DNA of 64,000 nucleotides from Candidatus Helarchaeota archaeon (lineage in GTDB: Archaea > Asgardarchaeota > Lokiarchaeia > Helarchaeales > RDOG01). The DNA is taken from the NCBI GenBank assembly GCA_019058315.1, contig JAHPZH010000006.1:160001-224000 (forward strand). The letters are read 5' to 3'. The number at the start of each line of letters is the position of its first letter. The first letter of the stretch is position 1. Position numbers and translations under genes: made by a program. The notes below the pieces were generated by a model. The model saw only the letters and a program-made list of their open reading frames with translations. It had not been told where the DNA came from and ran no database searches. This document shows, piece after piece, positions 50,138-62,606 of the stretch.

Positions 50138-50599
50138 TTGGAAAAAGAATACGAAATTGATGAATTAGACCGACAAATCATAAGAATATTATCAAATGAC
50201 TCAAAAACTAATTATCGAGAGATATCTAAAACGTTGGGAACAAGTTTAGGAACTGTTCATAACAGAATTAATAACTTAAAAGAAAACAATATAATTAAAA
50301 AATTTAGTGTTGATGTTGATACATTTAAACTGGGATATAAGATAACTGCTATTATTCTTATGCAAATAGAAGGTAAACATATTCAACAAATAGAAGAAAA
50401 GTTATCCAAGGAACCTAATATCTATAATATTTATGATACAACAGGGGAATGGGATTGTATCATTACCGTTAAATTCAAAAAAATGGAAGATCTAAATGAA
50501 TTCCTAAAAAAAATTAATAAGATGGATCATATTAAACGAACTATTACATCTATTTGTTTAAATGTTATCAAAGAGAATTCATTTCTTCCAACAAAATAA
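50138..50599 (+). CDS. Lrp/AsnC (FFRP) transcriptional regulator
   Basis: IDELDRQIIRIL, HTH (GTVHNRINNL), IYDTTGEWD RAM domain. Confidence 0.95.
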   Translation: MEKEYEIDELDRQIIRILSNDSKTNYREISKTLGTSLGTVHNRINNLKENNIIKKFSVDVDTFKLGYKITAIILMQIEGKHIQQIEEKLSKEPNIYNIYDTTGEWDCIITVKFKKMEDLNEFLKKINKMDHIKRTITSICLNVIKENSFLPTK

Positions 50600-51605: not shown

Positions 51606-52418
51606 TTAAATTGGTTTTGCAGTATAATAAGCTGCATATGGACGATGAGATCCTGGAATTATTTTATAAAATGATTTCTCCCAGATAAATTCTTGATTTA
51701 TATTAAAAATTTCACAATATTCTTTTATAATCGGTTGCAAAATTTGGTGATCTTCTTCTGAAAGTGTGTTTTTGACGGTTCCGATTCCTAAATAATTTTC
51801 TGGAACTTCTCCTCTTATATATATCTTTCCACCATGAATACCACTTGCTAAATTAGGTGATATAAAATTTTCAAAATTTGAGATTTTTGAATTCTCATAT
51901 TTGAGACCTAAAGCTATTAAAATCCCACCTGCCATGTATTCTCCAAAAAATTCCTTTGCTTTTCCACCAATTACTATTATTGGTATTTGATCCTGGTATT
52001 CCTTCATATGTATTCCAATACGATATCCTGCATTTCCTTTTACGAATATTTTCCCCCCTCTCATTGATAAACCTGCTACATCACGGCAATCTCCTTCCAC
52101 GATAATTGTTCCACTATTCATTGTGTTTCCTATTTGGTCTTCCGCATTACCTTTAACTATAATTTTTGGTCCATCCATAAATATTCCTAAATCATTACCA
52201 GGGACTCCATGAATCTCTAATTCTATTGGATCTTTTTCAGAACATTCTAAACCTGCACCAATGAAGCGTTGACCACAAACATCTAATAATTTAATCAATT
52301 TGTGACCATTATTAACTGATTCTTTAATCAAAGAGTTTAACTTCTTGTAAGATAATGGAGTTTTGTCTTTTCTAGCATTAATTGTATGCCAATCTGAAAT
52401 TTTTTTAGTCTCCAGCAT
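51606..52418 (-). CDS. Glutamate synthase domain 3 (GXGXG beta-helix) subunit
   Basis: GQRFIG, GVPGNDLG, GNTMNSG, MRGG, GYRIGIHMK, GEYMAGG, GIHGG. Confidence 0.93.
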   Translation of the reverse strand: MLETKKISDWHTINARKDKTPLSYKKLNSLIKESVNNGHKLIKLLDVCGQRFIGAGLECSEKDPIELEIHGVPGNDLGIFMDGPKIIVKGNAEDQIGNTMNSGTIIVEGDCRDVAGLSMRGGKIFVKGNAGYRIGIHMKEYQDQIPIIVIGGKAKEFFGEYMAGGILIALGLKYENSKISNFENFISPNLASGIHGGKIYIRGEVPENYLGIGTVKNTLSEEDHQILQPIIKEYCEIFNINQEFIWEKSFYKIIPGSHRPYAAYYTAKPI

Positions 52419-53928
52419 GTTTTACACCTAAAATTTCTGCTATTTTTGGATTTGAACCAACATATCTTAATCTATCTCTATTCCCTTTTAGGCTTTCAAC
52501 TGAATCAATTCCTAAAGCACCTAAGATCTCTCTTAATTCTTCATTCCATGCTTTAAAAAGATTTGTTATTCGTTTTGCTGAAACATCAACATCTAATCTA
52601 TGAACTAAATCTGCCCTTTGAGTAGCAATGCCCCATGTACATAAACCTCTATGACAACTCTGACAAACTGTACATCCCATTGCAATCAAAACAGGTGTAC
52701 ATACTTGAGCGGCATCTGCCCCCAAAGCTATTATCTTAACTAAATCTGCAGAATAACGAATACTACCTCCTGCAAATAAAGTGATATTTTGTCTAATACC
52801 CTCTTCTCTTAATCTTTGATCTACAGCCGCAATGGCTAGCTCAATAGGAATACCAGCATGATCACGAATTATTCTAGGGGCTGCTCCAGTTCCTCCTCTA
52901 AAACCATCTATGGTTATAAAATCTGCGTCTGCTCTGGCGATTCCACTAGAGATTGGGGCTACATTATGAACCGCTGCGATCTTAACTCCTACAGGTACTT
53001 GATAATCTGTTGTTTCCTTTAAGGCAGCAATTAATTGAGCTAGATCTTCTATAGAATAAATGTCATGATGTGGATATGGAGATAAAGCATCAGATCCTTG
53101 AGGAATCATTCTTGTTTCGGAAATCATTTTAGAAACTTTTTCTCCAGGAAGGTGACCACCATGACCTGGCTTTGCTCCTTGACCTATTTTAATTTCTAAT
53201 GCCGCAACTTCTTTAAGATATCTATTATCTACTCCAAAACGACCGGAAGCAACTTCACTGATAACATTATCTTTATATTGAAAGAAATCTTTATGCAATC
53301 CTCCTTCTCCAGTACCAGCTAGGGTACCAATTCTTTTTGCAGCTTTCAAAATAGAAAGACAAGCATTATAACTAATTGAACCTATCGACATATGCCCAAC
53401 AATTATTGGTGTCTGAATTTCTATATTTGGAGGATATTCTAAAGCTAGAACTACATCTCTTAAGTCAGTTTCAAATTCTAATTGTGATAATTTTTTCCCA
53501 ACAAATACTTTTGTTTCTACTGGTTCTCTAAGTGGATCTATTGCGGGATTTGTAACTTGACAAGCATCCATTAATAGATCATCAAATACGTGATGATATG
53601 CCAAATCATTTCCTGTCGATGCTAATAATACTCCCCCAGTGCCTGATTGTTCAAATATTATACGTCTAATTCTATCATTATAATTATAATGAGGTGCATA
53701 TTGTACATCATTCACTCTTACTGTTATAGCACTTTGAGGGCACATTAAAGCACAACGTTGACACATAACACATTCATAATTATCAGCAACAATACGTTCT
53801 CCATTAAACGAGAGTGCTCCATAAGAACAATTGATTGTACATCTTTTACATAAAATACATCGTTCTCTATCAATATTGACAAGAAATTTTGGAGGTACTC
53901 TATGTCTGATGTTAGATTCTAAAGCCAT
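52405..53928 (-). CDS. Glutamate synthase FMN domain subunit with N-terminal 2x[4Fe-4S] ferredoxin
   Basis: CILCKRC..C, CVMCQRC..CP, EIKIGQGAKPGHGGHLPGEKV, PHHDIYSIEDL, DGFRGGTGAAP, CTVCQSCHRGLC. Confidence 0.96.
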   Translation of the reverse strand: MALESNIRHRVPPKFLVNIDRERCILCKRCTINCSYGALSFNGERIVADNYECVMCQRCALMCPQSAITVRVNDVQYAPHYNYNDRIRRIIFEQSGTGGVLLASTGNDLAYHHVFDDLLMDACQVTNPAIDPLREPVETKVFVGKKLSQLEFETDLRDVVLALEYPPNIEIQTPIIVGHMSIGSISYNACLSILKAAKRIGTLAGTGEGGLHKDFFQYKDNVISEVASGRFGVDNRYLKEVAALEIKIGQGAKPGHGGHLPGEKVSKMISETRMIPQGSDALSPYPHHDIYSIEDLAQLIAALKETTDYQVPVGVKIAAVHNVAPISSGIARADADFITIDGFRGGTGAAPRIIRDHAGIPIELAIAAVDQRLREEGIRQNITLFAGGSIRYSADLVKIIALGADAAQVCTPVLIAMGCTVCQSCHRGLCTWGIATQRADLVHRLDVDVSAKRITNLFKAWNEELREILGALGIDSVESLKGNRDRLRYVGSNPKIAEILGVKHAGD

Positions 53929-53943
53929 ATTTTCACCTATTTA

Positions 53944-55098
53944 TTAACTTCCTTGAAAATTCATTGGCAATAAATTTCTTTGATTACCAACCGAAATAAT
54001 CCCTTTACCAAGTTCTGCAATTACGGGTACCCCTGCAGTTGGTTCCCAAATTCTTTCTATTCCATTTGCAACATGTTTTATAGCACTTTCTTCACTGCTT
54101 ATATAAACAATATTTTGATCCTCAGATAGTCCTGCGATTAATGGACGTAATTTCTTCCGATCTGTTAATCCAATTATTGAAGGAACAGGTCTATTACAAC
54201 CCACTAGAATACTGAATGGACCATTTAGCATTGCAGAACCGTAATTGACTCGTAACAATTTAAAAATATTTTGATATCCATTTGTCATTCTAGTAATTTC
54301 GTCATAATAAGGTGGGGCTACAATATTACAAGCCATCAATTTGGATAATCTATGCTTTCTTGTTAATAAATCGAATAGATAAGCTACAACTTCAGTGTCT
54401 GTTAATAATCTGCATTTATATCCCCACATTTCCAAATATCTTTTATTAGTTCCATAAGAAGTTATTTCTCCATTGTGCACAACAGAATAATCAAGAATAT
54501 TAAATGGATGAGCTCCTCCCCACCAACCTGGCGTATTTGTTGGAAAGCGAGAATGACCTAACCAAAGGTAACCCTTATAACGTTCAATTTGATAAAAATC
54601 TGCAATATCAGCTGACCAGCCGTTTCCTTTAAATACGACCATATTTTTACCACTAGATAAACAAAAAGCACCATTAATTTCGGAATTTATATACATCACT
54701 ACATCGACAATGAAATCATCAGGATTACTCATTTTCGGAGAAACATCAATAAAATATCGCCAAATAATGGGTGCAGGAGAAATATTATTTGATACTGGAC
54801 ATTTTTCATCTTTAATAATGTCCACTACTGTTTTCAAATATTCTTCTACATTATTTTTAGCAATTAAATCATCTAATAATAGTTGTATACAGTATAGATC
54901 TTGAAGATTAGGCCACACTCCATAAACAGCATAACCACCACCTAATCCATTTTCTCGATCTTTTAAAACTGACATCATCCTCTTAACTTTTACTCCACTT
55001 TCAAGTTTTCCATCAATATTTAAAAAACCTGCAATTCCACATGCATCAAAAATTTTATCATCCTTTCGTTCTGGCATATTTGCAAAAGAAATCTTCAT
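53944..55098 (-). CDS. Glutamate synthase amidotransferase (class II GATase) subunit
   Basis: ACGIAG, RENGLGGG, HSRFPTNT, AHPF, HNGEI, TDTEV, DRKKLRP. Confidence 0.94.
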   Translation of the reverse strand: MKISFANMPERKDDKIFDACGIAGFLNIDGKLESGVKVKRMMSVLKDRENGLGGGYAVYGVWPNLQDLYCIQLLLDDLIAKNNVEEYLKTVVDIIKDEKCPVSNNISPAPIIWRYFIDVSPKMSNPDDFIVDVVMYINSEINGAFCLSSGKNMVVFKGNGWSADIADFYQIERYKGYLWLGHSRFPTNTPGWWGGAHPFNILDYSVVHNGEITSYGTNKRYLEMWGYKCRLLTDTEVVAYLFDLLTRKHRLSKLMACNIVAPPYYDEITRMTNGYQNIFKLLRVNYGSAMLNGPFSILVGCNRPVPSIIGLTDRKKLRPLIAGLSEDQNIVYISSEESAIKHVANGIERIWEPTAGVPVIAELGKGIISVGNQRNLLPMNFQGS

Positions 55099-56423
55099 GT
55101 TTCCACATCCGTATCTGATTTTTTATGAATTAATTTTTTCAAATCATCAATACCATCCATTAAATCAATAGAAAGATCTAATTTTTTTCTTTGGCTTAAT
55201 ATCTTTCCAGTTGCTATTCCTTCTTTAAGGAATTTTTTAGATTCTGAAGTAATAGATTGAGGTCCATAACCTAATTTTATAGCCAAATTTCTTAATTTTG
55301 TAAAAAAATGCGCGAGTCCCATTCTTTGAGGACATTTTTCTAAACAAGAATAACAATTTAAGCAGTACCAGATTCCATCGCTTTTAATTGCTTCTTCAAT
55401 TTTACCATCTATGATTAAATCAACGTATTTAAGGGGATCAAATTCAAGTATACTTACCAAAGAACAATCTTGAGAACAAGCTCTACATTTTGCACAATTT
55501 TTTAAAAGATCCAATCTGAAATTTTCAGAATTAATTTGTATTTCTTGTTTAGGTGTAAAATCGCTTAGTTTAAAGTCAGCTTTAATTTTATGTTGTTTTA
55601 ATAAATTATCGATTTCATCTATTCCTAAAGCCATTGCTATGATTTCTGATAGATGAAGAACAGGTATAGAAACTTCAAAATTATTTTTTTGTAATTTAAG
55701 TTGCCCAATTTCAAATTGAAGAAAACAATATGGGCATAAAACTGCTATACAATCTGCACCTGCGTTTTTAATATTGGATATCTTTTTAGTTATTGATTTA
55801 AAAGAATCCATTTCATCAATGAAATTTAGGCTACCACCGCAACACATATCTTTACCCTCATAATCGACATTTTTAGCTCCTAGTGTCGTCAATATTTTCT
55901 CGATTGATCGTGGTCTGCGGTGATCATCGAATTCCACAATATTTGATGGTCTGATTAAATGACATCCATAATGAGTAGCAATTTTAAGATCGCTTAAATC
56001 AAGAGTTACTTGCTGTTCAAGCCTTTTTAAGCCTATATCACGTAGAATTAATTCATGAAGATGCTTGATCTTAACTTTTCCTTTGAAATTAAGATCTAAT
56101 TTATCTAATTCTAGATTAATTTTATTTAATAAATTACTATCTTCTTTTAATAATGTTGAGACTTTTCGAAAAGTACTATAACAACCATTACAAATTGTAA
56201 ATATATCTAGATTTAAACTTTCAGCAATTGCTAAATTCCTAGCTGCTGTTAAAATCCATAATTCTTCGTTATAACTTTGTAAACCTTGTGGATCTGGACA
56301 ACATGTGAATTCTTTTGGTTCCCTTAATTTAATATTAAACCTATTTGCTACTAACCTCATCGATTTTTCGATATAAGGAAAACGATATGTAATTAAACAT
56401 CCAGGATAAAAAATCATTTCCAA
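55095..56423 (-). CDS. Heterodisulfide reductase-like HdrB-HdrC fusion
   Basis: Two CCG domains (YPGC...CCP...CNGC; HYGCH...CCGG...CPYC) followed by CAKCRACSQDC and WYCLNCYSCLEKCP. Confidence 0.88.
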   Translation of the reverse strand: MEMIFYPGCLITYRFPYIEKSMRLVANRFNIKLREPKEFTCCPDPQGLQSYNEELWILTAARNLAIAESLNLDIFTICNGCYSTFRKVSTLLKEDSNLLNKINLELDKLDLNFKGKVKIKHLHELILRDIGLKRLEQQVTLDLSDLKIATHYGCHLIRPSNIVEFDDHRRPRSIEKILTTLGAKNVDYEGKDMCCGGSLNFIDEMDSFKSITKKISNIKNAGADCIAVLCPYCFLQFEIGQLKLQKNNFEVSIPVLHLSEIIAMALGIDEIDNLLKQHKIKADFKLSDFTPKQEIQINSENFRLDLLKNCAKCRACSQDCSLVSILEFDPLKYVDLIIDGKIEEAIKSDGIWYCLNCYSCLEKCPQRMGLAHFFTKLRNLAIKLGYGPQSITSESKKFLKEGIATGKILSQRKKLDLSIDLMDGIDDLKKLIHKKSDTDVET

Positions 56424-56844
56424 TATATATTGCTTCCAGTTTAATTGATCATAGTTATTACGAGAAACTTCAAATAATAATCTTTTTCGTCATTTTTGAT
56501 ACCTTTTTACTTAAAAATAATATTTTATTTTGTATATTAAGTCGGTTAACTTAGATAAATGTGACAATATATTAGGCAAAAAATACCATAATATACAAAA
56601 TTAATGATGACAATAATCAATTCTTTACATAATATTATTTTGTAAAATTTCCTCTTTACTTTTTGATAAATATGCTACTTTATGATATAAATAGTGACAC
56701 TATGCCTCAAATAAAATTAATAAATGATAAATAATAACTTAATATTAAACATAAAAAAAAGTGAACAAAAGAATTAAAAACTATTATATTACTGAACATA
56801 TATTCAAAAGAATTAAGAAAAACAATAAAGTTAGGTGTTTGAAA

Positions 56845-58308
56845 ATGCAAATAATTGAGACTGTTGAATCGATTAAGAAAAAACTAACAGATAATAATAT
56901 AAATTGGGTACTTTGTGCAATGACCGATATCCGAGGGATTTTCCAAAGTTTCAGCTCACCTGTTGAAAAATTTTTAGAAGATGATCAATATTTTGAAACA
57001 GGAATAGGATTTGATGGCTCTTCAATTCGAGGTTTTAAATCAATTGATGAAAGTGATATGATATTCTTCCCAGATCCAAATGGTGTTTATATACTTCCTT
57101 GGGTGAATGGAGAAACTAGAAGTGCTGTAATAATTGGAGATATTAGAGAACCATTTGGAAGTGATCAGGCATCAGATGTGGATCCAAGAGGTTTTGTGTC
57201 AAAAAATGCAGTAAAATTAGCAAAAAGTATGGGATATACATCATACTTTGGACCAGAGATTGAATTCTTTGTATTTAAGTCAATAAATCCATCAAAACTA
57301 CAATATGACTATTTTGTTTCGCCTAATGGCGGTTCTTCGGATAGCTGGGGACCACCCCGAATAGTACCAGAGTCACCTGATGCGACACCAGGTGGTTATA
57401 TTCTGCGACCTAAGGAAGCATATTTTAGAAACCCTCCTGAAGATACAACGCATGATTTTAGAAATGATTTTGCAAATGCATTGATAAAAATGGGATATCA
57501 AATTGAAATGTCTCACCATGAAGTTGCTTCACATGGTCAAGTTGAGATCAATTTCAAATATGGTGATTTAGTTCAAACAGCGGATCGTGTCCAAATTTAT
57601 AAATTTGCGGCTAGAAATATAGCAAAAAAATACGGTTGGATAGCTACATTTATGCCTAAACCAATTTATCTCGATAATGCGAGTGGTATGCATGTTCACA
57701 ACTCTCTTTTCAACAATGGAACAAATGTATTCTATGATCCTAATGATAATTATGCAGAGATAAGCCAAGAATGTCGATATTATATTGGTGGGTTATTAGA
57801 ACACGCAAAAGCTTTGACAGCTCTTTGTTGTCCTACAGTAAATTCTTACAAGAGATTAGTTCCAGGATTTGAAGCACCAATAAATGTAATGTACAGTAGA
57901 AGAAATAGGTCTGCTCTGGTGAGAATTCCTGTCTATCTAAAGGGTGAAAAATATCAAAAAAGGAAAAGAGTTGAATATAGAGGTGTAGACCCATCTACTA
58001 ATTCCTATCTAGCCTTTGCTGCTATTTTGACAGCAGGTTTGGATGGCATCAAGAAGAAAATTGATCCTGGAGATCCTGTAGATGAAGATGTGTACGAAAT
58101 GACTACTGAAGAAAAAAATGCACATGGAGTAAACCAACTGCCTACAACTCTTAAAGATGCATTGGATGAGTTGTCAACAGACGAAGTTCTACAAAAAGCA
58201 TTAGGTAGTCACGTCTATGATGCTTTTATAGACTATAAAACAAACGAATGGAATCAATTTTGTCTCTATGTTACTCCTTGGGAAATAATGAAATACTTGG
58301 ATTACTAA
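56845..58308 (+). CDS. glnA: Type I glutamine synthetase (likely start ATG 56845 after AGGTG, not GTG 56761)
   Basis: FDGSSIRGF, GPEIEFF, HHEVA, ATFMPKP, SGMHVH, NSYKRLVPGFEAP, NRSA, RVEYR. Confidence 0.97.
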   Translation: MQIIETVESIKKKLTDNNINWVLCAMTDIRGIFQSFSSPVEKFLEDDQYFETGIGFDGSSIRGFKSIDESDMIFFPDPNGVYILPWVNGETRSAVIIGDIREPFGSDQASDVDPRGFVSKNAVKLAKSMGYTSYFGPEIEFFVFKSINPSKLQYDYFVSPNGGSSDSWGPPRIVPESPDATPGGYILRPKEAYFRNPPEDTTHDFRNDFANALIKMGYQIEMSHHEVASHGQVEINFKYGDLVQTADRVQIYKFAARNIAKKYGWIATFMPKPIYLDNASGMHVHNSLFNNGTNVFYDPNDNYAEISQECRYYIGGLLEHAKALTALCCPTVNSYKRLVPGFEAPINVMYSRRNRSALVRIPVYLKGEKYQKRKRVEYRGVDPSTNSYLAFAAILTAGLDGIKKKIDPGDPVDEDVYEMTTEEKNAHGVNQLPTTLKDALDELSTDEVLQKALGSHVYDAFIDYKTNEWNQFCLYVTPWEIMKYLDY

Positions 58309-59975: not shown

Positions 59976-62606
59976 ATGGATAAAGAAATTAAATTAAATT
60001 TTAGTTCAGGAATTCCTGCATTAGATGAAATCCTACAGGGAGTGCTTCCTGGAGATAATGTAATTTTTAAAATAGATAGGCTTGAAAATTATATTCCATT
60101 TGTAAACGCATTCTGTAATTATGTCAATAAGGAAAATTTGGATTTAATATATCTCCGTTTTAATAATCATCAATATTTGTTACCAAAAAATATCAAAGCA
60201 ACAGTCTATGAATTGAATCCAAAAAAAGGATTTGATTATTTCATATCTGATATTATAAAAATCATTGATAAGCATGGAGTCGGAGCTTGTTATGTTTTTG
60301 ATTCTCTGTCCGATTTAGCTGTGAATTGGTATTCTAATGTCATGTTAGGAAATTTTTTCATGCTTATATGTCCTTATTTATATAAATTAAAAACTGTAGC
60401 TTATTTTGGATTATTTCGAAATTATCATGATTCAAAAACACTGAAAGATATTCAAAATACTGCTCAAGTAATTATTGACGTATATCAAGATGGGGAAAAT
60501 TCCCTTTATGTTCATCCAGTTAAAGTTTTCGAACGTTTTTCTTCAAAGATATTCATGTTGCATAAATGGTCTGATTTAAACAATCCCCTTAGTTCATTTC
60601 AAACTATAAAATCCAGTACAAGAATTGCTAATATTATTTCTAAAAAGCATTTCATATCTCTGAATCCAATTCAAGATCATATTGATGCTTGGAATCTCAC
60701 CTTTCAAGAAGCTCAAAAAACATTGGAAGGAATAGTTCTAGGGCAAATATCTGTCAAAGAATTAAATGCATTTAAGAGTAAGATATTAAGAAAAGCTATT
60801 GTTCAAGATGAATTCCAATTAAATTTGGCTCTAAAGTATTTTGACTTAGATGATATTCTTGATATAAGAAAACGAATGATCGGCACAGGATTTATTGGAG
60901 GAAAATCCTTGGGCATGTTACTTTCAAGAGCAATAGTAAAAAAGGAAATTCCAGAATTAGAACAAAAGTTAGAGGTACAAGATTCCTTTTTTTTAGGTAC
61001 TGACATATTTTATACATATCTAGTCAAAAATGACTGTTGGTGGTTACGAAGAAAGTTATCAAATCCTGAAACTTTTCTTGAGGGATTGGAAGAAACATGT
61101 GATAAAATGCAATCAGGAACATTTCCGGACTATTTAATTGAAAAATTTATTGAAATGTTGGATTATTTTGGGCAGGCCCCAATAATTGTTCGCTCAAGTA
61201 GTTTACAAGAAGATTCTTATGCAGATTCTTTTTCTGGTAAAGCTGTCAGTATCTTCTTAACTAACCAGGGAACTCTTGATGAACGTTTAAAAGAATTTCT
61301 CAAAGCAATTCGTACCGTTTATACAAGTTCAATTAGTCCAAATACTCTGTGTTACCGAAAAAACCGTTTACTATTGGATAAAGATGAACAAATGGCGATA
61401 TTAGTTCAACGGGTCTCTGGATCAATTTATGGAAAATACTTTTTCCCACATATTGCGGGTACAGGTTACTCTTTCAATCCTTATGTATGGAATGAAAGAA
61501 TTGATCCAAATGCTGGATTTTTGCGTTTGGTGTTTGGACTTGGAACGAGAGCTACAAGTCGAACAGATGATGATTTTCCAAGATTGGTTGCACTAAATGA
61601 ACCTTCCTTGCGAGTTGAGAGTACACTTGATGAAATTCAAAGATATTCCCAGAAAAAAGTTGATCTATTAGACATTGAAAAGAATAAATTTATTACAAAG
61701 AATTTTTTAGATTTTCAATCTATTAAAGATAGTTTACCAATGCATATCTTTGCTACATATGATTATGAACTTGAAAAACGAATGCAGCAATTAGGTAGAG
61801 AATTTATTTTTCCTTGGGTCTTAACCTTTAATCATCTCTTGGAAAAAACAGACTTTACAAAGAATATGATAAGAATATTAAATGCTTTAAAAATGGCATA
61901 CAAATGTCCTGTTGATATAGAATTTGCCGTAAACTTCTTTGATGATCAAAATTATAATATAAATCTTTTACAATGCCGTCCATTTCAAGTTAAAGATCAA
62001 ATAAAAGACATACCAGAACCTAAAGATATTGAAAATAAATCTATTATATTCCAAACTTCAGGTCCTATAATTGGAAATAGCATTGCAACTAAAATTGATC
62101 GCATTATTTATATTGAACCTGAAGTCTTTAGCAAAATGACCATACAAGAAAGATATTCTATTGCCCGTTTAATTGGAAAAATAAATCAATTAAGTGAAAA
62201 ATCAGATAAAAAAATAATGCTTATAGGCGCCGGAAGGTGGGGGACATCAACACCAAGTTATGGAGTTCCAGTTTCATTCGCTGAAATTAATAATATATCA
62301 ATTATTTGTGAAATTAGAGAAAAAATGGGGCATTTAACTCCAGATGTCTCATTAGGAACTCATTTTTTTAATGATCTTGTAGAATGTGATATGCTCTATT
62401 TTATAATTTATCCTGAAAAAGAGAGGTATTCTATAAATCGAAATTATTTTAGAAAAGCAAAAAATTCACTTACAAAGTTAATACCCGAATCTGAACAATG
62501 GTCTCAAGCTATCAAAGTCATAGATTTAGATACAAATGGTTCCATAATCCATATCTACATGAATGCTTTTAAACAAGATGGGATTGGTTATTTGACAAAT
62601 GAATAA
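59976..62606 (+). CDS. Degenerate KaiC/RecA-like domain fused to a PEP synthase/PPDK N-terminal ATP-grasp domain
   Basis: SSGIPALDEILQG (no Walker A); IGGKS, VRSSSLQED, MAILVQ, FGLGTRA, DIEFA, LLQCRP; GRWG, SLGTHFF. Confidence 0.85.
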   Translation: MDKEIKLNFSSGIPALDEILQGVLPGDNVIFKIDRLENYIPFVNAFCNYVNKENLDLIYLRFNNHQYLLPKNIKATVYELNPKKGFDYFISDIIKIIDKHGVGACYVFDSLSDLAVNWYSNVMLGNFFMLICPYLYKLKTVAYFGLFRNYHDSKTLKDIQNTAQVIIDVYQDGENSLYVHPVKVFERFSSKIFMLHKWSDLNNPLSSFQTIKSSTRIANIISKKHFISLNPIQDHIDAWNLTFQEAQKTLEGIVLGQISVKELNAFKSKILRKAIVQDEFQLNLALKYFDLDDILDIRKRMIGTGFIGGKSLGMLLSRAIVKKEIPELEQKLEVQDSFFLGTDIFYTYLVKNDCWWLRRKLSNPETFLEGLEETCDKMQSGTFPDYLIEKFIEMLDYFGQAPIIVRSSSLQEDSYADSFSGKAVSIFLTNQGTLDERLKEFLKAIRTVYTSSISPNTLCYRKNRLLLDKDEQMAILVQRVSGSIYGKYFFPHIAGTGYSFNPYVWNERIDPNAGFLRLVFGLGTRATSRTDDDFPRLVALNEPSLRVESTLDEIQRYSQKKVDLLDIEKNKFITKNFLDFQSIKDSLPMHIFATYDYELEKRMQQLGREFIFPWVLTFNHLLEKTDFTKNMIRILNALKMAYKCPVDIEFAVNFFDDQNYNINLLQCRPFQVKDQIKDIPEPKDIENKSIIFQTSGPIIGNSIATKIDRIIYIEPEVFSKMTIQERYSIARLIGKINQLSEKSDKKIMLIGAGRWGTSTPSYGVPVSFAEINNISIICEIREKMGHLTPDVSLGTHFFNDLVECDMLYFIIYPEKERYSINRNYFRKAKNSLTKLIPESEQWSQAIKVIDLDTNGSIIHIYMNAFKQDGIGYLTNE

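Follow-up and report, generated by a model that had tools for sequence, protein, structure and literature searches.

A fused HdrB-HdrC protein as candidate thiol-linked electron-input subunit of a split glutamate synthase in Asgard archaea and bacteria

Nitrogen enters biomass mainly through glutamate synthase (GOGAT), which is known to draw its electrons from NAD(P)H or ferredoxin and putatively also from coenzyme F420, the F420-dependent status of the split enzyme linked to FrhB being itself putative. Here we describe a four-gene operon from a stretch of 64,000 nucleotides of a Candidatus Helarchaeota genome (hereafter the window; contig C6 of a genome with 5.8 Mb, 30% G+C and 12 contigs), in which a gene for a fused HdrB-HdrC protein is followed by gltB1, gltB2 and gltB3. 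The same GltB1/GltB2 chemistry is found in the NAD(P)H-GOGAT (GltB-GltD) and in the Thermotoga-type split GOGAT with its NADH-oxidase-like flavoprotein; however, the small subunit GltD (Fer4_20 plus pyridine-nucleotide oxidoreductase) is not encoded with the gltB genes of the window. The F420-type split GOGAT (with an FrhB-like 'subunit 4', for example in the MTH193 region, and in the FGltS groups) has the same three-piece GltB1/GltB2/GltB3 core and follows the same logic, in which a separate fourth gene of the operon supplies the electrons (PMC3087415; PMC9012536); but there the fourth gene is an FrhB-type F420/FAD (flavin adenine dinucleotide) protein, whereas here it is an HdrB-HdrC fusion with the motifs of non-cubane clusters. 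We read the four genes as one split GOGAT, the fused fourth subunit of which replaces GltD or FrhB as a dithiol-oxidising module for electron input, a reading that we favour with modest confidence. No published description of an Hdr-linked GOGAT was found in our searches of the full-text literature, most subscription journals lying outside their coverage, and the novelty that the earlier note on this DNA had suspected stands within that scope.

The Hdr side of the operon has described relatives as well. With HdrB and HdrC of the methanogen HdrABC complex (PDB 5ODC, 7BKB, 8RVU) the fusion has in common homology along the full length of HdrB, both five-cysteine CCG motifs and an HdrC-type 2x[4Fe-4S] domain; it differs in its B-then-C order, in the lack of an adjacent hdrA and in its linkage to glt rather than to mvh, fdh or fwd genes, and the electron flow that we propose is reversed with respect to methanogenic Hdr, from a thiol to an acceptor. 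In fact an hdrA gene beside the fusion in an organism using coenzyme M (CoM-SH) and coenzyme B (CoB-SH) is not the general picture, as no hdrA adjoins the fusion and MCR was found in 0/23 of the other fusion-bearing Asgard genomes. In HdrD of the HdrDE complex the CCG domains are preceded by the ferredoxin domain, and HdrE is its membrane partner, while the fusion has the order CCG-CCG-Fer4, the reverse of HdrD, and no cytochrome b gene is among the genes adjacent to the operon; an identity with HdrD was rejected on account of that order. The thiol:fumarate reductase of Methanothermobacter, TfrAB, draws biosynthetic electrons from CoM-SH and CoB-SH through a subunit with CCG domains. It is thus alike in principle, for a CCG subunit takes the electrons of a dithiol and hands them on to a flavin subunit that carries out a biosynthetic reduction; however, TfrB carries SdhB-type clusters N-terminal to its CCG domains, its partner is a fumarate reductase flavoprotein, and the fusion stands outside the TfrB family, although TfrB is among its NCBIfam matches (E 9e-22). 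Another analogue is the sHdr-LbpA system of sulfur oxidisers, where a module of Hdr type presumably works on a dithiol bound to a protein, together with a lipoate-binding GcvH-like protein.

The coordinates of the operon and of its relevant neighbours are collected in Table 1. The stop codon of hdrBC overlaps the start of gltB1 in an ATGA at 55095-55098 (..GAA ACA TGA / ATG AAG.., as read in the sequence), gltB1 and gltB2 are separated by 15 bp, while gltB2 shares 14 bp with gltB3. Pfam detected neither GltD (Fer4_20) nor FrhB domains within the operon or in the genes flanking it, and a pyridine-nucleotide-binding domain is absent from the operon proteins. The four-gene layout, the ATGA overlap and the lack of a GltD or FrhB subunit in the operon, all described in the earlier note, proved correct in every particular by open reading frames (ORFs), Pfam and direct reading.

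Table 1. Features of the operon and its neighbourhood (positions in the window)
Feature	Position	Strand	Remarks
hdrB-hdrC fusion	55095-56423	-	442 aa from TTG 56423; 440 aa from ATG 56417
gltB1, class-II (Ntn) glutamine amidotransferase subunit	53944-55098	-	384 aa; GATase_2/GATase_6
gltB2, FMN/glutamate-forming subunit	52405-53928	-	507 aa; Glu_synthase + N-terminal Fer4
gltB3, GXGXG beta-helix subunit	51606-52418	-	270 aa; Pfam GXGXG (PF01493), E 3e-28
glnA (glutamine synthetase)	56761-58308	+	divergent from operon; Pfam Gln-synt_C, E 8e-128
Lrp/AsnC-family regulator	50138-50599	+	near 3' end of operon; Pfam AsnC_trans_reg + HTH_24

In the fusion protein, Pfam recognises two CCG domains (E 5e-28) followed by an Fer4 dicluster domain at residues 307-367. 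Both CCG motifs are complete, the first as CX31CCX35CXXC with Cys9/41/42/78/81 and the second as CX39CCX34CXXC with Cys154/194/195/230/233, and the ferredoxin domain has two CX2CX2CX3C motifs with Cys310/313/316/320 and Cys354/357/360/364. Across 52 fusions of archaeal and bacterial origin the ten CCG and eight ferredoxin cysteines are kept: C9 occurs in 90% or more of them, the other nine CCG cysteines are invariant, and so are both ferredoxin motifs. With a profile of the same 52 fusions, residues 3-293 align end to end with an HdrB of solved structure (8rvu_b, E 2e-99, 36-37% identity), and residues 307-425 align with residues 28-148 of the 184 residues of HdrC (5odc_C, E 9e-24), the HdrC half being shorter than the stand-alone protein by about 27 residues at the N-terminus and 36 at the C-terminus. 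An AlphaFold2 model of the fusion (mean predicted local distance difference test, pLDDT, 84.5) superposes on HdrB at TM 0.92 with a root-mean-square deviation of 1.8 A. The two CCG domains and two ferredoxin cysteine motifs in B-then-C order, as already seen in the earlier note, are thus borne out by Pfam and by the HdrB and HdrC alignments. Moreover, in a tree of HdrB halves 35 fusions are grouped on one side of a branch with SH-aLRT 83, and for this reason a single origin of the fusions is plausible.

The glutamate synthase core has all the parts of the split archaeal type, namely an amidotransferase, a subunit with flavin mononucleotide (FMN) and Fe-S domains, and a separate GXGXG subunit in the same operon. 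GltB1 is recognised as a class-II amidotransferase (GATase_2, E 2e-10), and Cys20, which follows a short propeptide that would be removed and stands in the motif DACGIAG, is its candidate nucleophile, the motif (D/G)CGI(S/A/T)G being found in its relatives; gltB1 orthologues at 50-59% identity stand downstream of every fusion. GltB2 combines Glu_synthase (PF01645, E 4e-131) with an N-terminal 2x[4Fe-4S] ferredoxin domain, of which the cysteines C24/27/30/34/53/56/59/63 are invariant in 30 orthologues, as are C419, C422, C425 and C430 of the Cys4 cluster site, and it holds the sole true Glu_synthase domain of the genome. Finally, gltB3 sits downstream of gltB2 in at least 30 loci.

Downstream of gltB3, six loci from Asgard genomes and one from a bacterium encode an additional protein of about 530-550 aa that matches Glu_synthase only in part (L045:11176-12822, L098:12047-13636), and that by its sequence may be an FMN paralogue.

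The linkage of hdrBC with the glt genes is not peculiar to this genome. In a scan of species-representative genomes giving 44 loci, of which those are informative where the contig continues past the fusion, the order hdrBC-gltB1(-gltB2-gltB3) was found in 35/35 informative Asgard loci, with titles that include Loki-, Thor-, Hod- and Hermodarchaeota. Among 40 relatives the full-length fusion is encoded in eight genomes, in all eight of which it is adjoined by gltB1 and gltB2. A search of 5.8 billion proteins returned, in its best 120 matches, almost exclusively proteins that share this architecture at a length of about 440 aa. Several carry the names of Coriobacteriia or Actinomycetota metagenome-assembled genomes (MAGs), while the closest named homologue belongs to a Helarchaeota MAG (64% identity). 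The identical set of four genes is present in one Helarchaeota context (L099) and in three from bacteria, of which one belongs to a MAG named as Coriobacteriia; gltB1 is also directly downstream of the fusion in the Coriobacteriia-labelled and related bacterial contigs L095-L098. When the profile is followed outwards in an exhaustive search, only about 27 clusters (50% identity) of full-length B-then-C proteins are passed before stand-alone HdrB appears, and among six of the most divergent 50%-identity representatives (P0136, P0138, P0139, P0141, P0143, P0144) gltB1 is downstream in 6/6. A chance adjacency was rejected on these grounds, the linkage being held in all informative loci, and the neighbourhood survey for hdrB beside gltB2 that the earlier note had proposed reveals a recurrence across Asgard classes and bacteria.

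Three further proteins of 420-466 aa, P0140, P0147 and P0234, have their HdrB-like part C-terminal (from about residue 140-180), a layout that to judge from the sequences would fit a reversed, C-then-B order.

The surroundings of the cassette are also conserved in part. The operon of the window is flanked by glnA, a gene for a zinc-ribbon/RING protein and the Lrp/AsnC regulator, and together with the divergent glnA it forms a GS-GOGAT (glutamine synthetase-glutamate synthase) locus. Beside the cassette glnA recurs in 13 Asgard loci and in L096, L098 and L099, and homologues of the Lrp/AsnC regulator in 14 cassette loci and directly upstream of the fusion in L110; bacterial contexts hold glnA, a GlnR-like regulator and a PdtaS/ANTAR pair. 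The cassette neighbours with nitrogen roles include glnA, Lrp, PII, Amt and GlnR-like genes.

The co-occurrence of the fusion with one kind of GltB2 was followed in a sample of 301 Asgard genomes, the matching GltB2 clade being delimited at an identity of at least 58%. All 24 genomes with the fusion also hold the matching clade, and conversely the fusion is present in 24/28 genomes with that clade, two of the four exceptions being at contig edges. In the sister Asgard GltB123 clade (about 52% identity), a flavoprotein of 430-470 aa with Pyr_redox_2 and Rubredoxin_C domains, of NAD(P)H type, lies beside the glt genes, and this clade therefore represents a flavoprotein form like the NAD(P)H- and Thermotoga-type GOGAT. 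In 4/5 loci (L088, L090-L092) its gene is directly upstream of gltB1 and overlaps the start of gltB1, and in L089 a ferredoxin and the flavoprotein are encoded between gltB2 and gltB3. Since the sister clade puts an NAD(P)H-type flavoprotein where hdrBC sits, the position upstream of gltB1 is an exchangeable slot for an electron donor, with HdrBC as one of its occupants. In methanogens an FrhB-like 'subunit 4' goes with the split GOGAT (PMC3087415; PMC9012536). Among the arguments for HdrBC as electron input, this swap of modules in the donor slot is the strongest, and it is directly observed, as are the domains, the intact ligands of the clusters, the strict linkage of the genes and the co-occurrence. 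Of the thiol-linked GOGAT suspected in the earlier note, the part that makes HdrBC a dedicated electron-input partner is thereby supported, by linkage, co-occurrence and module swap together, but not a specificity for CoM and CoB, to which we return below.

Several observations weigh against the proposal that HdrBC is the donor module. Two genomes of one genus, G016 and G240, keep intact gltB1-3 genes without hdrBC. In G016, which is 100% complete, a remnant of about 74 residues from the C-terminus of the fusion is left just upstream of gltB1 (L086:8130-8351, 65% identity to the fusion of a congener), and because this remnant persists hdrBC is a recent deletion there; as both genomes retain the core, the GltB core may work with free ferredoxin or with a partner encoded elsewhere. 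In the Helarchaeota genome itself, three GltD-like proteins are encoded on other contigs, none of them beside glt genes, and could serve in trans, and five FrhB-like proteins, which could likewise act in trans, are encoded on contigs C11, C5 and C3, again none beside glt genes. The fusion scores below the NCBIfam equivalog cut-offs both for HdrB (TIGR03288; 285.5 against 345 bits) and for HdrC (TIGR03290; 51.5 against 160 bits), and it is consequently a relative of HdrB and HdrC rather than a certified orthologue of either. Moreover, not all proteins with CCG domains are thiol enzymes, as SdhE, LutA and GlpC serve in quinone or other contexts of electron transfer. No gene for a thiol carrier, a lipoyl protein or Lpd was found in the operon or in any cassette neighbourhood examined, and the HdrBC-GltB complex is a putative one, proposed from the genes. 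A prediction of the interface between GltB2 and HdrBC from two alignments scored 0.00 and was weighed neither for nor against binding.

These observations bear first on the explanation that GltB123 is a ferredoxin-dependent GOGAT, and that HdrBC is no main donor but an accessory thiol-redox sensor, a switch or an overflow path. The two genomes with an intact core, one of them with the deletion remnant, speak for such an accessory role, and so does the 2x[4Fe-4S] domain of GltB2 itself, an entry for electrons in which the cysteines are invariant. Nevertheless the fusion accompanies this GltB2 clade in 24/28 of its genomes, with half of the exceptions at contig edges; the flavoprotein of the sister clade, which is catalytic and mostly occupies the same slot, argues for a donor over a sensor; and the 18 cluster cysteines kept across domains fit a working chain of electron transfer. 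Taken together, we regard the accessory role as unlikely.

For the reading that we prefer, with HdrBC as the electron-input subunit, the following mechanism is proposed, and for it we infer a physical complex as well as the direction of the electron flow and the nature of the substrate. The HdrB half would convert a dithiol to a disulfide at two non-cubane [4Fe-4S] clusters, and the electrons would then travel by way of the HdrC half, with its two [4Fe-4S] clusters, into the 2x[4Fe-4S] domain at the N-terminus of GltB2, and from there through the Cys4 cluster of GltB2 to FMN. The reduced FMN would in turn reduce 2-iminoglutarate, made from 2-oxoglutarate and the ammonia that GltB1 releases, and the locus and the divergent glnA would function jointly in a GS-GOGAT unit. 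As for the dithiol, CoM-SH and CoB-SH would be chemically possible in a genome bearing MCR/ACR, while for the family as a whole a more general dithiol would be likelier. The reverse function, an oxidation of glutamate, was rejected, as the glutamine amidotransferase subunit is intact and glnA is conserved with the cassette.

Such a linear chain from HdrB through HdrC to GltB2 requires no third partner, which tells against another explanation, namely that the fusion is an adaptor through which the GOGAT docks onto a flavoprotein of HdrA type whose gene lies elsewhere, together with a hydrogenase or an F420/NADH module, so that glutamate synthesis becomes one arm of a flavin-based bifurcating or confurcating system. 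HdrC does bridge HdrA and HdrB in the solved HdrABC complex, and at least 15 HdrA-like proteins are encoded in the genome. However, hdrA was found within the flanks of none of the at least 45 cassette loci examined, and the HdrC half, matching only residues 28-148 of 184, is missing both ends of HdrC. We therefore hold the adaptor to be improbable, and this judgement covers its versions with disulfide chemistry as well as those without; the link to an HdrA-type bifurcating complex, which the earlier note had offered as a second source of electrons, is indicated by none of the neighbourhoods examined.

Two side observations concern the Hdr-like genes at large. The genome encodes about 45 CCG proteins (91 CCG-domain matches), many of them of about 400 aa and HdrD-like (e.g. 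L001-L008), a number that is very large for one archaeal genome. Besides, three HdrA-like genes have 2-3 in-frame TGA codons and are otherwise full-length (C3:41567-43504, C5:663781-665700, C11:388546-390480), and these are candidates for selenocysteine-containing HdrA.

It remains to consider which dithiol would serve as the donor. Three MCR/ACR-alpha-like genes are present in the genome (C5:377506-377883, C3:198869-199246 and C11:316902-317273, in open frames of about 600 aa), and in the sample of 301 genomes from the phylum MCR is confined, besides the Helarchaeota genome, to two relatives within its order. The finding suggests an Asgard archaeon of Helarchaeales type with an alkane or methane metabolism, and because the genome has the MCR/ACR-alpha-like genes and many hdrA genes, CoM-SH and CoB-SH are plausible metabolites in it. 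By our own estimate the couple of the glutamine-driven GOGAT lies at about -70 mV, and the potential of dihydrolipoate is about -290 mV. For the heterodisulfide couple -140 mV or a revised -281 mV is given (PMC12054007). Both dihydrolipoate and the heterodisulfide couple would be adequate reductants for GOGAT. Such considerations lend themselves to a more specific explanation, in which the enzyme is a CoM-SH/CoB-SH:GOGAT proper that also regenerates heterodisulfide for ACR in an alkane-oxidising archaeon; the MCR/ACR-alpha-like genes, the HdrB half with methanogen HdrB as its closest kin and a heterodisulfide couple that is reducing enough are all in line with it. However, MCR was found in none of the 23 further Asgard carriers in the sample; G002, which belongs to the same order and does bear MCR, possesses a GOGAT operon of the flavoprotein type rather than of the hdrBC type; and the fusion family extends to contigs labelled as Coriobacteriia and Actinomycetota, for which reasons an enzyme specific for CoM and CoB across the whole family is unlikely. 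With the score under the equivalog cut-off for HdrB added to these points, we consider the CoM/CoB-specific enzyme to be very improbable, and the CoM/CoB-like thiol pair named in the earlier note does not find support as the specific donor. The genome check for mcr/acr, hdrA and gltD suggested there showed MCR/ACR-like and HdrA-like genes and, on other contigs, the GltD-like genes.

The general donor is then probably another dithiol, for example protein-bound dihydrolipoate on a GcvH-like carrier, a lipoyl protein being possibly involved. In fact clusters that join Hdr genes with such carriers exist in the Helarchaeota genome. In one of them (L107, C5:639737-642146), hdrC-hdrB and then two GcvH-like genes on opposite strands are next to a CdhC (ACS beta) gene, and of the stand-alone matches to the fusion that were detected in the genome, the hdrB of this cluster scores highest (41% identity, E 2.7e-72). 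In another (L108, C5:1372512-1380699), genes for an lplA-like ligase, a GcvH-like carrier, DsrH, two DsrE/F-like proteins and an Lrp regulator are divergent from hdrC-hdrB-hdrA (1014 aa); this sHdr/LbpA-like layout, on contig C5 and away from the GOGAT operon, resembles the clusters of sulfur oxidisers. The GcvH-like proteins beside Hdr genes in this genome keep the lipoyl lysine. Outside L100-L103, L107 and L108, all from the same genome, GcvH-like genes were seen in the neighbourhoods only as the weak cases L104 and L105, also from this genome, and in no locus of the cassette or of a relative; support for a lipoyl donor is accordingly drawn from the Hdr-GcvH clusters elsewhere in the Helarchaeota genome, and is not confirmed at the GOGAT operons. 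As a tentative proposal, we suggest a fourth, dithiol-dependent class of GOGAT, in which HdrBC would oxidise a small or protein-bound dithiol, such as lipoyl-GcvH, or CoM-SH/CoB-SH in alkane-oxidising Asgard archaea.

As for other elements near the operon, an Rfam scan of the window gave no matches, and a scan of the operon for sigma-70 promoters and terminators gave counts at the level of shuffled sequences, the bacterial-type model being unsuited to archaea. A candidate operator motif, TGAAYAWWTRTTCA, has one match in the window (56793-56806), which is not above chance, as 69/100 shuffles matched as well. The palindrome TGAACATATATTCA at these positions falls within the longest glnA ORF, which begins with the GTG at 56761, and because of this the true start of glnA is probably further downstream. 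Near the GS-GOGAT locus there is also a gene for an 870-aa PPDK_N (ATP-grasp) protein without the pyruvate-binding barrel, both in the window (59976-62606) and in a Helarchaeota relative (L099:11872-14475).

From the viewpoint of the organisms, the Helarchaeota locus is distinguished by its MCR/ACR-bearing Asgard host, by the swap of donor modules among relatives and by the Hdr-lipoyl-carrier clusters of the same genome, and as the cassette is compact with its four genes and is present in bacteria too, the hypothesis is directly testable. If it is true, the conserved HdrBC fourth subunit would add a donor class to GOGAT, and the Hdr-like non-cubane clusters would gain a role in biosynthesis, beyond methanogenesis and the metabolism of sulfur. 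Moreover, a function would be given to one member of the large and unexplained expansion of CCG/Hdr proteins in Asgard archaea, to which the many CCG proteins of the Helarchaeota genome belong, and the assimilation of nitrogen would be tied directly to the thiol/disulfide pool in Asgard archaea and in anaerobic Actinomycetota.

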